Shown here: piece after piece, positions 20,334 to 25,207 of the stretch
Numbering within the stretch: position 1 is the first letter of the stretch
Layout of the letters: each line of letters starts with the position of its first letter
Assembly (NCBI GenBank): GCA_964540135.1
Contig: CAZILK010000002.1
Location: 33,074 to 97,073 of the forward strand
Reading direction: 5' to 3'
Source: an uncultured Candidatus Saccharibacteria bacterium
GTDB lineage: Bacteria > Patescibacteriota > WWE3 > UBA101185 > UBA10185
Length of the DNA: 64,000 nucleotides
Made by a program: the position numbers and the translations under genes
Notes under the pieces: generated by a model
Databases searched by the model: none
Seen by the model: only the letters and a program-made list of their open reading frames with translations
What the model was told of the DNA's origin: nothing

Positions 20334-21098
20334 CTAATCAAACCTTGAATTTTCAAGCATGTACAAATAGGTTACGCTCTTACTTGTCAGTTCGTGATCC
20401 AAATCAAGCTTTAGTTTTTTCGCAATAGCCTTGAGTTTCGGGACTATGATATCGCTGTCCTTATCTGTCATCATTTCTAGCTCAACCCCAGTTTTAAAAT
20501 CTTTAATATCATCAATGACTACTTTGCATTCACCGTATTTATATACTAATCGATCTTTATCAAGAGTAGTCATCTCTCTAAGGTTCATGAGGTTAAGTAG
20601 CCTTAAAGCACTCTCATAATCTGGAATATCTATCTCCTGTTCAATACAAGTATCATGTTTATATGGTGTTACTAACCTTTTTATCTCCAAAGTTGTTGTC
20701 ATCTTCCCTGTATAACCATTGTCTTGTTCTCTAATTCTTAACCCAAAACCAACACCGTTATCAAACCATTCATCTTTCTGATCTATATTTTTTATACTAC
20801 TTGGGACAAACCAATGATCTATTACATGACCGTGGTAAATAACATGCGCACCAAGTTGTAATAATATTGCCTCCACCTGTAGACGGTTTGGTGTTAAAAA
20901 GCGTAATTCAACCTCATTCAGCGGTGTTCTCGCCTCTTTTTGTGATAAAAAGGTATTAATGTCTGATTCCCTAATTCTTACTACCCTACCAACCTTGGTA
21001 GCCTTCAGTTTGCCCTGTGCAATATAGGTTCTAACTGTTTGCCAGTGAATCTTCAAATAAGCTGCAGTGTCTTTAATTGTTAATAGCCTATCACTCAT
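20334..21098 (-). CDS. Excisionase/MerR-type HTH DNA-binding domain fused to a CYTH (triphosphate tunnel metalloenzyme/CyaB-like) domain
   Basis: N-terminal 'LLTIKDTAAYLKIHWQTVRTYIAQGKLKATKVGRVVRI' (HTH_17-like). A CYTH-type 'EVELRFL' (ExExK-like) motif opens the C-terminal domain. Confidence 0.55.
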   Translation of the reverse strand: MSDRLLTIKDTAAYLKIHWQTVRTYIAQGKLKATKVGRVVRIRESDINTFLSQKEARTPLNEVELRFLTPNRLQVEAILLQLGAHVIYHGHVIDHWFVPSSIKNIDQKDEWFDNGVGFGLRIREQDNGYTGKMTTTLEIKRLVTPYKHDTCIEQEIDIPDYESALRLLNLMNLREMTTLDKDRLVYKYGECKVVIDDIKDFKTGVELEMMTDKDSDIIVPKLKAIAKKLKLDLDHELTSKSVTYLYMLENSRFD

Positions 21099-21224
21099 GC
21101 TAACGATTATATCATATTCATTATTTTAGGTGATAGGCGCAAGTTAGCCAATCTGTTGCATATGTCAAATTACCATGACACTTGACACATACCTCACAGG
21201 GAGAATATTATCCGATTACTTACT

Positions 21225-22496
21225 ATGATTGACACTAGATTACTGGAGCATATTATACTTAACCCGCATTGCAAAATTGCGGATATCCAAAAGGAACTGG
21301 GCTATAACAGAACTACTCTACTTTACAAGCTGGAAAGGCTTATAAAAGAAAGGGTAATTAAAAAGGCATTTGAAGGCAAAGTAGCTGTATACCTGCCTTC
21401 TGAAAAATCAGCAATTGAGAGCTATTTCAACTCACAAATAGACGAAACAAAGAACATACAACACCAACTACTCACTAAGTTTAAGGTAAAAAAAGGTAAA
21501 GTTGCCAAAACAAAGCCAAAGCTTGTGTTTGTTAACTACTACGACCTGCTACCTGCCTTTAAGGAAGAGCTCAACACTGCCTATGAAATAACCGACTATT
21601 CAAATAAAGAATTATTTCTCTCGCAAGAAGAATTTGCATATCGCGCGCAAGATGCTGACGTTATAGTTAATAACTGGGCATGTGATGTTGGCAAATCACT
21701 TATCAAACAGCTGCCAAAACTAAAATATATGCATGTTTCAACACACATGTATCGTTACGTTGACCTAAAAGCACTAGACGAAAACAAGATTCATTTTTCA
21801 TATCTTCAAGCACCTGATTACAGGGTTCACGCTCTCTCAGAGTTTGCAATTGCACAAACCTTTGCCCTACTTAGAAAAGTTGCTGTTGCATCTTCCCAAT
21901 TAAGATCTGGAGTTATGGAATTCAAACAATTCACTGGCGATGAACTAAGAGGAAAGGTTGTTGGAATTATTGGTACCGACGCTGTGAGTAAAGAGCTCTT
22001 TTATTCTCTTAAAAATTTAGGGACTGAGGTATATGTTCACAACGAGAACGCAGCTGCCAATCCGCATGACTGGGGTTTGTCTAAATTCACACCACTTAAA
22101 ATGTTGGTTGAGCAGTCTGACATACTTTATCTTGTAAACAGTGAGGACACTCCGCCTAAAGTTTGCGAAAGGCTTGATGCGAGTTTACTAAACTTCATCA
22201 AAAAGCCTACATACCTAATAAGTATTACAAAACACAAATATATCGACACCAAGCTTATCAAAAAATTCATCTATAACGGCAAAATTAAAGGACTGGCCTT
22301 AGATTATTTCGAAGATATGAATAAAATCAAAGAGCTTAAAGACTCTGAAATTAGTACCATCACCTACCTCCCCAATGTTTTAATAACACCAGACATAGCT
22401 TGGAGCACCAAGACATCGATTGAAAATATGAACATTGCAACGAACAAATACCTAATGGCATACGCAAAAGGAGATCATAGCTATTTGCTACTTTAA
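21225..22496 (+). CDS. Winged-HTH regulator fused to a degenerate D-isomer-specific 2-hydroxyacid dehydrogenase-like domain
   Basis: N-terminal wHTH 'KIADIQKELGYNRTTLLYKLERLIKE'. C-terminal NAD-binding-like 'VGIIGTDAVS' and 'LALDYFE'. The catalytic His position reads 'ITPDIAWST' (His replaced by Asp), which suggests a sensor pseudo-enzyme. Confidence 0.55.
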   Translation: MIDTRLLEHIILNPHCKIADIQKELGYNRTTLLYKLERLIKERVIKKAFEGKVAVYLPSEKSAIESYFNSQIDETKNIQHQLLTKFKVKKGKVAKTKPKLVFVNYYDLLPAFKEELNTAYEITDYSNKELFLSQEEFAYRAQDADVIVNNWACDVGKSLIKQLPKLKYMHVSTHMYRYVDLKALDENKIHFSYLQAPDYRVHALSEFAIAQTFALLRKVAVASSQLRSGVMEFKQFTGDELRGKVVGIIGTDAVSKELFYSLKNLGTEVYVHNENAAANPHDWGLSKFTPLKMLVEQSDILYLVNSEDTPPKVCERLDASLLNFIKKPTYLISITKHKYIDTKLIKKFIYNGKIKGLALDYFEDMNKIKELKDSEISTITYLPNVLITPDIAWSTKTSIENMNIATNKYLMAYAKGDHSYLLL

Positions 22497-22500
22497 TACA

Positions 22501-23472
22501 ATGAAATTTGTTGCATTAGATTTAGGCTATATCCATTTTGAACACCTAAGTAAAATTGGGGATATCGAGGGAATAACTGATTTTAAATACTTCCCTATCC
22601 CACCAATTGATGAGGCTGAAATCATCGCCAGAATTGGAGATGCTGAGCTTGTAACTGGGAGGGTTTATTGCAAAATTAACAAACATGTTATCGAGAATGC
22701 CACAAACCTCAAAGCAGTATTTACACAATCAGTGGGTTTTGATCACATAGACACTGACTTTGCAAAGTCTAAAGGTATTAAAGTCTACAATTGCCCCGGA
22801 TATAACTCAAATTCGGTTGCAGAGTTCGCGTTTAGCCTAGTTTTAAGTCTTTTTAGAAAAATCCCAGCTGCTCAAGAACACGTTAGAGCCGGCGGTGTTG
22901 AATACAGACTATTTGAAGGTACGGATCTCAGAAATAAAACAATTGGAATTATTGGAGCCGGCAATGTGGGCAGTAAAATTGTTTCAATTGCCAAAGGGTT
23001 TGGCATGAAGCCTCTTGTCGCTACAAAAAACCCATCTAACAAAAGAGCGCAGGCTATAGGAATAGAAGGCTTCACAGATTTAGACAAATTGTTAAGAAAC
23101 TCTGATGTAATTGTGGTTGCAGTTACCCTAACCCCTGAAACCAAGGGACTGCTGGGGAAAAAAGAACTTGGATTAATACCACAAACTAGTTTTCTGATCA
23201 ATATATCAAGACAAACAGTTATAGATGAGAACGAGCTCGCTAAACGAATAGTGGAAAGAAAAATTGCAGGCGCTGCATTAGATTTATTGCTAAAAGACCC
23301 TTTTAAAATTGACGAACATTCGCTCCTGATTCAAGAAATGGTTAATATGCCAAATGTCATAATAACTCCACATATTGCAGCTGAAACAAAAGAAGCGAAC
23401 TACAACCTAGGTGTTATAACGCTTGAAAACATTACAAACTTCTTAAGAGGAGTTGACCAAAACTTAGTATAA
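22501..23472 (+). CDS. D-isomer-specific 2-hydroxyacid dehydrogenase (intact catalytic residues)
   Basis: 'GIIGAGNVG' Rossmann motif, catalytic 'ISRQTVIDE', 'AALDLL' and 'IITPHIAAET' (catalytic His). Confidence 0.8.
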   Translation: MKFVALDLGYIHFEHLSKIGDIEGITDFKYFPIPPIDEAEIIARIGDAELVTGRVYCKINKHVIENATNLKAVFTQSVGFDHIDTDFAKSKGIKVYNCPGYNSNSVAEFAFSLVLSLFRKIPAAQEHVRAGGVEYRLFEGTDLRNKTIGIIGAGNVGSKIVSIAKGFGMKPLVATKNPSNKRAQAIGIEGFTDLDKLLRNSDVIVVAVTLTPETKGLLGKKELGLIPQTSFLINISRQTVIDENELAKRIVERKIAGAALDLLLKDPFKIDEHSLLIQEMVNMPNVIITPHIAAETKEANYNLGVITLENITNFLRGVDQNLV

Positions 23473-24285
23473 TTAGACTAGCACTGCTTCTCCCCTATTG
23501 TTTAAGACTTTAAACTTCTTTGCATTCTTCCACATGAACTCAAACACCTGCTTTTGCATCTCTGTAAGTTCTTTATTATAAATCTCAACACAAAAGATAT
23601 CAGCATCTTGATAACGGTAAAGAGCGTAAACATCGTTATAAATGAGAATTTCAAAGTTAATCTTCATTTGTTTTGCAGGAATATGTCTTATGCTCCAGTA
23701 TTTCTCAACCATCTCGTGTGTAGAAGTCCAAGCTGCAATCTTGACAACATTTGTCAGTGTTCTTATCTTTATCTTGTTCTCAACAAACCTATACCGCATG
23801 TCTTCGGCATACGCTTTATCTAAAAAAGCACTCATGTCTGAGACCTCAAGTGTAAGTAGTTCTCCTTTAGCTTTTAAAGAATTCCAAGTTACTTGCTTTA
23901 GACCCTCAACACCATGGTAATAAAGTACTTTTGAGTTCTTTTGTTCAGTGTTTGGCAGTAGTGCTAACTGCTCCTCAAGTGAATCTATATTGTTCTTAAA
24001 TAACCTGGCTTCAAACTCCTTTTGGGCAACTAAGGCTTCGAGTTGTACTTTGCCAGCAGCTTCAAATCGCTGACCCCTTGAATCAAGGATTGAATTAACT
24101 AGACCTATCTTAAGCAAACTGTCCAACATTCGGTACACTCTAGTTCTTGGGATCTCCAGCTTGCGACTTATCTCAAGGGCTGTATAGCTTGTATTTCTCC
24201 TTAATAACAGGTATAAAGAGGCTTCGTCTTGTTTAAGACCAAGAGGCAATAACAACGGTAATAAACTGTCTGTTTTATCGGACAT
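23473..24285 (-). CDS. TrmB-family transcriptional regulator
   Basis: N-terminal TrmB-type HTH 'LGLKQDEASLYLLLRRNTSYTALEISRKLEIPRTRVYRMLDSL'. Divergent from the EamA transporter gene. Confidence 0.6.
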   Translation of the reverse strand: MSDKTDSLLPLLLPLGLKQDEASLYLLLRRNTSYTALEISRKLEIPRTRVYRMLDSLLKIGLVNSILDSRGQRFEAAGKVQLEALVAQKEFEARLFKNNIDSLEEQLALLPNTEQKNSKVLYYHGVEGLKQVTWNSLKAKGELLTLEVSDMSAFLDKAYAEDMRYRFVENKIKIRTLTNVVKIAAWTSTHEMVEKYWSIRHIPAKQMKINFEILIYNDVYALYRYQDADIFCVEIYNKELTEMQKQVFEFMWKNAKKFKVLNNRGEAVLV

Positions 24286-24289
24286 CAGT

Positions 24290-25207
24290 TTGATAGTACA
24301 TCAATTGCTACTTATAATGCAAGACATGCACTATTCAAAAGGTGTTGTCTACATCTTAATATCAGCGGTCTTTTACGCCTCGTACGGCGTATGGTCTAGG
24401 CTGATGGGTTCATCTTTTGGTGAGTTTACCCAAGCCTGGACACGAGGACTATTCCTACTGGTAGTTATTCTGATACTCAACAGTAAATTTAAGTTCTTAA
24501 AGAAGTTTGGTAAGAAAGATTTGCCTTGGTTTATGCTAATTGCACTTGCCGGAGGTATTAATCAAGCTCCTTATTACTTTGGGTTTCAACATCTGCAAAT
24601 TGGTACTGCTACCCTACTCTTTTATGCCTCTCTTGTTGTTGGAGGATATGTTATGAGTAAGGTATTTCTACAAGAGAAAATTAACTCAACCAAGCTTTTT
24701 AGCCTTGGACTTTCAATTCTTGGCATGGTTTTAATTTACAAATTTTCACTCAGTACTGGGCAGCTTTTGGCAGCCGTTTTAACCTGTATCGCAGGGATTC
24801 TTGGAGCAGCAACTGTTGTACTTACAAAAAAACTTTCGGGAAATTATTCCGAGCTTCAAATTATGATTGGTTATTTTGCATTACAAGTAGTGATTAACCT
24901 CCCGCTTGCAGTTCTCAGTCACGAAGTAATGCCCTCTTTCTCAAATACAACAGCTTGGGTCGCACAAATCCTCTATGCATTTAGTATGCTTGCAGCCAAC
25001 TATGCTGTGATCGAGGGTTTTAAACATGTAGACGGAAGTATCGGCAGCTTAATCGGACTTGCTGAAATACTCTTTGGTGCTTTCTTTGGCTGGCTGTTGT
25101 TCTCAGAACTAATCTCAGCTTTTACTTTAATGGGTGGAATTATAATTATTGCTGCAGCAGCATATCCAAGTTTAAGAGCTAGAACTAAAGATGATCTTAA
25201 CTACTAG
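24290..25207 (+). CDS. EamA/DMT-superfamily transporter (10-TM)
   Basis: Two repeated 5-TM halves, with hydrophobic periodicity typical of EamA. Confidence 0.6.
   Translation: MIVHQLLLIMQDMHYSKGVVYILISAVFYASYGVWSRLMGSSFGEFTQAWTRGLFLLVVILILNSKFKFLKKFGKKDLPWFMLIALAGGINQAPYYFGFQHLQIGTATLLFYASLVVGGYVMSKVFLQEKINSTKLFSLGLSILGMVLIYKFSLSTGQLLAAVLTCIAGILGAATVVLTKKLSGNYSELQIMIGYFALQVVINLPLAVLSHEVMPSFSNTTAWVAQILYAFSMLAANYAVIEGFKHVDGSIGSLIGLAEILFGAFFGWLLFSELISAFTLMGGIIIIAAAAYPSLRARTKDDLNY

Follow-up and report, generated by a model that had tools for sequence, protein, structure and literature searches.

A winged helix fused to a degenerate 2-hydroxyacid dehydrogenase and encoded with its intact paralogue: a predicted autoregulatory gene pair in Patescibacteria

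Relation to described enzyme-derived regulators

Bacterial regulators of several families combine a DNA-binding domain with a ligand-binding domain derived from a disabled enzyme, among them MocR/GabR (aminotransferase), the ROK proteins Mlc and NagC (sugar kinase), PurR of Bacillus subtilis (phosphoribosyltransferase), NrtR (Nudix) and CggR/SorC, and such regulators are often encoded beside the pathway that they control. The same design is found in a gene of an uncultured Candidatus Saccharibacteria bacterium (assembly GCA_964540135.1), located in a stretch of 64,000 nucleotides of contig CAZILK010000002.1 (positions 33,074 to 97,073 of the forward strand; hereafter the window, numbered from its first letter), which encodes a winged helix-turn-helix (HTH) domain fused to a 2-hydroxyacid dehydrogenase (2HADH) fold with altered catalytic and cofactor sites. 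Unlike the MocR, ROK, PurR and NrtR-type regulators, this fused gene shares a tight operon with its own active paralogue. We read the fused protein, with moderate confidence, as an autorepressing one-component regulator whose pseudo-2HADH domain would bind an effector and relay domain closure via a long helix, and the results that bear on this reading are the arrangement of domains, the loss of motifs throughout the family, the conservation of the gene pair, a palindrome in the promoter and the co-variation of this palindrome with the recognition helix.

Rex is likewise a repressor composed of a winged helix and a non-catalytic Rossmann domain sensing NADH, and it binds a palindromic operator as a dimer, as is proposed here for the fused protein; both Rex and the eukaryotic corepressor CtBP retain the canonical dinucleotide loop. 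The C-terminal domain of Rex belongs to a different fold family and has an intact glycine loop, whereas the loop of the fused protein is degenerate and Rex domains were absent from its Pfam matches at E-values up to 0.1. CtBP also uses a 2HADH fold in transcriptional control, but its catalytic triad and its binding of NAD(H) are preserved and it has no DNA-binding domain (PMC6303947), being recruited by PXDLS-motif proteins, while in the fused protein the triad and NAD motifs have been lost and a winged helix of its own is present for predicted DNA binding. Resemblance to CtBP would be convergent use of the fold and not membership of the same family, and the 2HADH fold would be a further enzyme fold put to use as a sensor domain in bacteria, by a route other than that of CtBP, namely fusion of a DNA-binding domain and loss of the cofactor motif.

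Regarding the two component folds, the N-terminal domain is similar to ArsR/SmtB, MarR and Lrp-type repressors at the level of sequence profiles, but the fused protein has an enzyme fold of 330 residues in place of a metal-site or MarR-type dimerisation domain. The two-domain fold of 2HADH enzymes is common to the fused protein and its partner; the partner keeps the GxGxxG loop, the Arg, the acid and the His, whereas in the fused copy none of the His, the Arg, the glycine loop and the substrate-anchoring Gly is left and a winged helix has been added at the N-terminus. No description of an HTH-2HADH regulator was found in the literature searched, and Pfam and NCBIfam give generic domain matches only.

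Architecture and altered sites of the fused protein

Both open reading frames of the pair lie on the forward strand at the coordinates given by a first-pass annotation made from the sequence alone (Table 1), and its description of the first as a winged HTH joined to a D-2-hydroxyacid dehydrogenase fold was borne out by Pfam, structure prediction and Foldseek. HTH_24 matched residues 2-46 with 25.0 bits against a cut-off of 21.9, and the AlphaFold2 (AF2) monomer model, which had 24 homologues as input and a mean pLDDT (predicted local distance difference test) of 83.9, has helices at residues 2-12, 18-25 and 29-41 followed by strands at 45-50 and 53-58 (H-H-H-beta-beta), with residues 29-41, RTTLLYKLERLIK, as the recognition helix. 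An N-terminal profile matched solved repressors of the ArsR/SmtB and Lrp types (5duk as the best match, E 2e-7; SmtB, E 3e-6), and among 17 members of the family the N-terminus was matched by HTH_24 in ten and by HTH_5/ArsR in nine. The remainder of the protein matched PF02826 (2-Hacid_dh_C, E 8e-20) and PF00389 (2-Hacid_dh, E 4e-9), giving the two-domain 2HADH fold, and the best Foldseek matches were all 2HADH enzymes (6p2i, 5tx7, 1wwk and others, E about 1e-20). In the model, a helix of 26 residues joins the winged helix to the enzyme-like part and is probably a dimerisation or transmission helix. Assignment of the fused protein to the TrmB family was considered and rejected, the N-terminal TrmB matches being weak and limited to six of the 17 members and the C-terminal part having the 2HADH fold.

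Table 1. Positions of the features discussed, numbered from the first letter of the window
Feature	Position	Strand	Remarks
Operator-like palindrome TGTCAA-ATTACC-ATGACA	21163..21180		core TGTC-N10-GACA; 62 nt upstream of the ATG of the fused gene
-35 hexamer TTGACA	21182..21187	+	promoter scan, 11/12 match; doubles as third half-site, GACA-CT-TGACA
-10 hexamer TATTAT	21206..21211	+	18 nt after the -35 hexamer, 13 nt before the ATG
Fused-protein gene	21225..22496	+	423 aa: winged helix, long helix, pseudo-2HADH domain
Winged helix-turn-helix domain	21225..21398	+	residues 1-58; Pfam HTH_24, AF2 and N-terminal profile
Long single helix	21405..21482	+	residues 61-86; AF2 model
Pseudo-2HADH domain	21510..22493	+	residues about 96-423; Pfam and Foldseek
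Degenerate dinucleotide loop G250-T-D252-A-V-S255	21972..21989	+	GIIGTDAVS where GxGxxG is expected
Position of the catalytic, substrate-binding Arg (Lys336)	22230..22232	+	SITKHKYID, compared with TSRGPVVD of 1wwk
Position of the catalytic His (Asp390)	22392..22394	+	within ITPDIAWS, 22383-22406
Intact 2HADH paralogue gene	22501..23472	+	323 aa; 4 nt past the stop codon of the fused gene
TrmB-type N-terminal HTH gene	23473-24285	-	local context
Candidate second operator-like site TGTCTG-TTTTAT-CGGACA	24267..24284		only other core match in 64 kb
EamA gene	24290-25207	+	open reading frame listed from TTG 24290

Catalysis in 2HADH enzymes depends on sites defined in the classification of the superfamily, namely an Arg/Glu/His triad and a Gly between beta4 and alpha4 whose main chain positions the substrate (PMC6303947), and the fused protein was compared at these sites with 1wwk, with its own neighbour and with 24-25 full-length homologues at 32-80% identity. 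The first-pass annotation had reported replacement of the catalytic His (in 'ITPDIAWST') and a degenerate NAD loop, and both hold well beyond the window: the residue at the His position is Asp in 24/24 homologues, inside an invariant P389-D390-x-x-W393, and the second Gly of the loop (position 252) has become Asp (11 homologues), Glu (5), Asn (4), Ser (2) or Ala (1) and is retained in one, while at the third (position 255) Thr (13), Ser (6) and others are found and Gly in none. The first Gly of the loop is retained in 23 of the 24. Similarly, the position of the Arg is occupied by Lys in 22 homologues, with a single Arg and a single Ser, and the substrate-anchoring Gly between beta4 and alpha4 is Met in the window and Met, Ser or Ala in all 25 family members. 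These catalytic and cofactor losses are family-wide and do not represent private decay of the window gene.

Regarding the third member of the triad, the MAFFT column at the Glu position is hydrophobic, and an acid one residue earlier aligns with Asp266 of the partner in BLASTP. This acid, at position 364 (Asp360+4), is Glu in 12 and Asp in seven of the 24 homologues and fits the catalytic acid with a one-residue gap allowed, and a Glu equivalent may survive in the dead domain.

Residues N104, N150, H170, Y178, D180, Y199, D390 and W393 are invariant and Y105, D107 and K336 nearly so, and the dead domain is better conserved than the winged helix, with identities of 85% vs 66% between P0001 and P0003 and of 69% vs 38% between P0022 and P0018. 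In the model the conserved residues sit in loops taken to line the interdomain cleft, which looks like a remodelled yet functional pocket. Since the beta4-alpha4 Gly is lost, the Arg is replaced by Lys and the His by Asp, binding of the substrate of the enzyme by this domain is uncertain.

The strong conservation of Lys336, Asp390, Trp393 and the acid at 364 is like that of an active site and would also suit a bifunctional enzyme-regulator resembling BirA or PutA, active with a Lys/acid/Asp site, perhaps in non-redox chemistry, and binding DNA as well. Precedents for activity with altered residues exist in the 2HADH fold, as the top fold match, Bsp5 (PDB 6p2i), is an active NADPH-dependent acyclic imino acid reductase with Gly at the His position (TPGSAW), and SERA type IIIK is active with Lys (PMC6303947); given Bsp5, loss of the His alone is no proof of inactivity. 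However, the dinucleotide loop is intact in these precedents (GLIGIGQIG in Bsp5) and lost in the fused family, 25/25 members are without the Gly whose main chain positions the substrate, and a related fused family has Glu or another residue at the His position and nothing conserved at the Arg position, so that a bifunctional protein is very improbable.

The degenerate loop also bears on the mechanism suggested in the first-pass annotation, redox sensing of the CtBP type, in which, as in Rex, the dead domain would bind NAD(P)(H) and the NADH/NAD+ ratio would set DNA binding. The Rossmann topology and the first Gly are kept, a relative without the HTH (P0194) combines TPD with an intact GAGKIG loop, and an acid stands at the end of betaB in 21/24 homologues (Glu in 15, Asp in 6), where NADH-specific 2HADHs have a ribose-binding Asp (PMC6303947); because of this conserved acid, the domain may still bind some nucleotide. 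Against this, the second Gly, which packs against the pyrophosphate, is Asp, Glu or Asn in 20 of the 24 and the third is Thr or Ser in 19, which makes canonical NAD(H) binding unlikely; in a more distant fused family, Lys or other residues occupy this part of the loop, and the Pfam scan gave no Rex match. The CtBP-type mechanism is not supported by these data, and a sensor of the NADH/NAD+ ratio appears improbable.

The gene pair, its promoter and the mode of regulation

The downstream gene had been annotated as an intact paralogue with GIIGAGNVG, the catalytic Arg and Glu, and 'ITPHIA', and this was correct except for the acid: the protein has GAGNVG at residues 152-157, Arg237, His291 and, between beta4 and alpha4, Gly79, but its catalytic acid is Asp266 (in LKDP). 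The GxGxxG loop, the Arg, the acid, the His and the beta4-alpha4 Gly are retained in 22/22 members of the partner clade, the acid being Glu in 13 and Asp in nine. Regarding its reaction, the partner scores far below every NCBIfam equivalog cut-off, and identification as SerA, the phosphoglycerate dehydrogenase (PGDH), was rejected, as TIGR01327 (PGDH) gave 223 bits where 454 are needed and the position aligned to the Arg of 'VRS' in 1wwk, presumably a phosphate-binding residue, is not conserved among seven partner orthologues. At the end of betaB, the Asp of NADH-specific enzymes is replaced by an invariant Thr, so that the partner may prefer NADP(H).

The association of the two genes is nearly strict. 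Among 15 distinct loci with readable downstream DNA, 14 have, in the same orientation and 1-20 nt behind the fused gene, a gene for an intact 2HADH of 324-341 aa (after two over-long gene calls were moved to the conserved MKF start), and the sole locus without an adjoining partner is L009, the most divergent homologue. Conversely, the partner clade, which comprises about 24 clusters at 267 bits or more with a sharp drop in score thereafter, has members that share contigs with many fused proteins, and a fused gene is present at every partner-clade locus that could be read; in a blind reverse test, the clade member P0076, for which no fused neighbour was known, proved to have a fused gene of 423 aa 1 nt upstream. 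No Shine-Dalgarno sequence is visible before the partner gene of the window, so that its translation is probably coupled to that of the fused gene. A live enzyme beside its dead copy across many genomes provides a clean natural case of a pseudoenzyme evolving from its parent.

Such coupling suits an enzyme-pseudoenzyme hetero-oligomer (for instance 2+2, through the usual 2HADH dimer interface) that still binds a palindrome, in which the substrate or cofactor state of the enzyme would control DNA binding, making the enzyme a co-regulator whose state is read at the promoter, or the dead subunit would control the enzyme. An unusual loop motif, G-[GV]-x-E-[YF]-[RK]-x-F-x-G, is common to both proteins, the equivalent loop in 2HADH dimers reaches into the neighbouring subunit, and in the fused protein this loop (residues 222-235) is a low-confidence stretch of the monomer model. 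2HADHs are, moreover, normally dimers (PMC6303947). On the other hand, a palindrome requires two winged helices, so that a simple 1:1 heterodimer is unfit and a heterotetramer would be needed, and the absence of an adjoining partner in L009 also speaks against a complex of this kind, which we consider unlikely, if less so than the bifunctional and redox-sensing alternatives. If it did exist, the hetero-oligomer would be a bacterial, self-contained counterpart of the control by CtBP-type enzymes acting as co-regulators, having evolved through duplication of the enzyme and acquisition of a winged helix, and would be known so far from the candidate phyla radiation (CPR)/Patescibacteria alone.

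Regarding the promoter, the operator-like palindrome of the window belongs to a general unit of 18 bp, TG[TG]CNN-N6-NNG[AC]CA, with the core TG[TG]C-N10-G[AC]CA and the consensus TGTCTATTGCATTAGACA. The core was detected at most 120 nt upstream of the fused start codon in 11/16 loci, or 12 if a site with one mismatch in L015 is counted, compared with four core matches in the other 198.5 kb, and the resulting binomial P of about 1e-26 overstates the independence of the loci, which are phylogenetically related. In the 64 kb of the window there are two matches to the core TGTC-N10-GACA, where 0.77 would be expected by chance.

The position of the palindrome relative to the promoter is also conserved. 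In seven loci it begins at -41 or -40 from the start codon, with the 6-bp spacer (TTGnnT) serving as the -35 hexamer, and the -10 box follows 17 nt on, with the start codon 5-7 nt past the -10 box, a distance that implies leaderless transcripts; in L005, L008, L012, L015, L017, L022 and L023 the -35 and -10 boxes precede the start codon of the fused gene by almost exactly 35 and 10 nt. The fused gene of the window has a very short leader without a Shine-Dalgarno sequence, and here the palindrome is followed by CTTGACA, which contains both a third half-site and the -35 box, an arrangement common to the window, L019 and L020. The same -35 hexamer is the right arm of a perfect TGTCAA-N13-TTGACA palindrome, unique in the window. 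This perfect form, present in the window and L008, was rejected as the operator unit, since comparison of more loci shows it to be the general unit plus the third half-site. In L017 (Dojkabacteria-like), the DNA ahead of the operator contains a short tandem repeat, (TTAACTA)n, at about 310-370.

Sequence changes in the recognition helix and in the palindrome go together. Helices with RTAALYHL pair with TGTCTA half-sites and those with RTAxRHHL with TGGCTA; the C-domain of P0022, an RHH protein with TGGCTA, is 64-69% identical to proteins of the TGTCTA class, and the other RHH group, that of P0009, is not among the eight closest relatives of P0022, all at least 55% identical to it, which indicates that the RHH/TGGCTA state arose twice. 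Between the window and L019, a relative with 78% identity, the palindrome differs by a symmetric, compensatory change, with TGTCA...TGACA in the window and TGTCG...CGACA in L019. We argue from this co-variation that the winged helix of the operon itself reads the palindrome, and a palindrome implies two DNA-binding heads, as would be provided if the fused protein formed a homodimer or were part of a larger assembly with symmetry. The first-pass idea of a regulator with a sensor pseudo-enzyme therefore finds support in the inactivated 2HADH copy next to an intact paralogue, in the palindrome and in the helix co-variation, though not in its CtBP-type form. An operator or target has been predicted for very few transcription factors of CPR/Patescibacteria, and the regulator, operator and target set predicted here can be tested, the sigma-70-like promoter making this feasible in Escherichia coli.

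In the autorepressor reading that we prefer, a symmetric dimer of the fused protein would bind the 18-bp palindrome (TGTCNN-N6-NNGACA) through its N-terminal winged helices, and, as the palindrome overlaps or abuts the -35 box of the promoter of the fused gene, binding would repress a short-leader or leaderless operon encoding the fused protein and the intact 2HADH. We infer repression in preference to activation, and likewise the homodimer and the existence and identity of an effector. The C-terminal domain, as a putative enzyme duplicate without hydride-transfer chemistry but with a remodelled, conserved cleft, may bind a small-molecule effector linked to the reaction of the enzyme, and opening or closing of the two domains would be relayed by helix 61-86 to the DNA-binding heads, which would then let go of the operator.

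Besides the relatedness of the loci, several observations weigh against this reading. L001, L002, L007 and L009 (4/16 loci) are without a clear palindrome, and the site of the window is imperfect in the N6 register, with ATGACA instead of TTGACA. Sensing of the substrate of the enzyme is a guess only, given the changes at the sites by which a 2-oxo or 2-hydroxy acid is normally held, and the activity of Bsp5 and SERA type IIIK shows that His-less or Lys-bearing members of the fold can be enzymes. A regulator co-translated with its target from a tight bicistronic message is unusual and suits a protein complex better.

Origin, distribution and neighbouring genes

The dead domain matched its own partner with 105 bits, compared with 73.8 bits for the best other non-fused match in a search of 5.8 billion proteins, and partner proteins were among its top non-fused matches in a search of 1.84 billion representatives. 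With the partner as its closest non-fused relative, the dead domain most likely goes back to a duplicated copy of the partner gene. P0194, the relative of 326 aa without an HTH, has ITPDMAWYT (His replaced by Asp) and has lost the Arg, while keeping the beta4-alpha4 Gly along with its intact loop, and may represent a step in the evolution of the dead sensor domain from the enzyme.

The fused family is rare, being found in four species among 185,579 GTDB representatives and at five loci in a scan of JGI metagenomes. The 24-25 homologues are all from CPR, and where a source is labelled it is given as Parcubacteria, Shapirobacteria, Dojkabacteria or Patescibacteria group. Public names are mostly lacking or otherwise read 'hypothetical protein', 'phosphoglycerate dehydrogenase-like enzyme' or 'NAD(P)-dependent oxidoreductase', with one JGI name adding 'predicted transcriptional regulator'; the enzyme names are probably wrong for the fused proteins. 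An exhaustive profile search also revealed a second, more distant family of winged-helix and 2HADH fusions (P0182-P0250, about 18 clusters at 50% identity), designated 'TPE', with Glu at the His position in 15/18 members, no conservation at the Arg position and Lys or other residues in the glycine loop. Two of its members, P0321 and P0183, are on contigs of the same size as those of the intact enzymes P0084 and P0130 (17148 and 33486), which hints at the same pairing.

Regarding the neighbourhood of the pair, the TrmB regulator and the EamA exporter noted in the first-pass annotation are present downstream (Table 1), but they were rejected as parts of the system, as they are not conserved neighbours elsewhere: of the other loci, only L001 has a TrmB-like gene beside the pair, and none has EamA there. 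The candidate second operator-like site overlaps the initial codons of the TrmB-like gene, and its end lies 5 nt before a strong promoter-like site of EamA (TTGATA at 24290, a spacing of 17, TATAAT at 24313 and ATG at 24326). It is not conserved in other loci, and is suggestive only; EamA and/or TrmB could be in the regulon in this genome. With the promoter-like site at 24290-24318 and the ATG at 24326 lying 7 nt beyond the -10 box, the real start of EamA is suggested to be 24326, on a leaderless transcript.

Divergent from the fused gene, the reverse-strand gene at 20334-21098 encodes an HTH_17 domain (excisionase/MerR-type) fused to a CYTH domain, and HTH_17 fused to an M20 peptidase is found next to the pair in L001 (9040-10422) and L019 (1308-2642). 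In these genomes, enzyme folds may repeatedly have captured an N-terminal HTH. Further features of the window, clustered tRNA genes (Thr, Tyr, Thr, then Trp) and the leader of ribosomal protein L10 (17748-18022, 19090-19163, 42187-42299), are ordinary for a chromosome.

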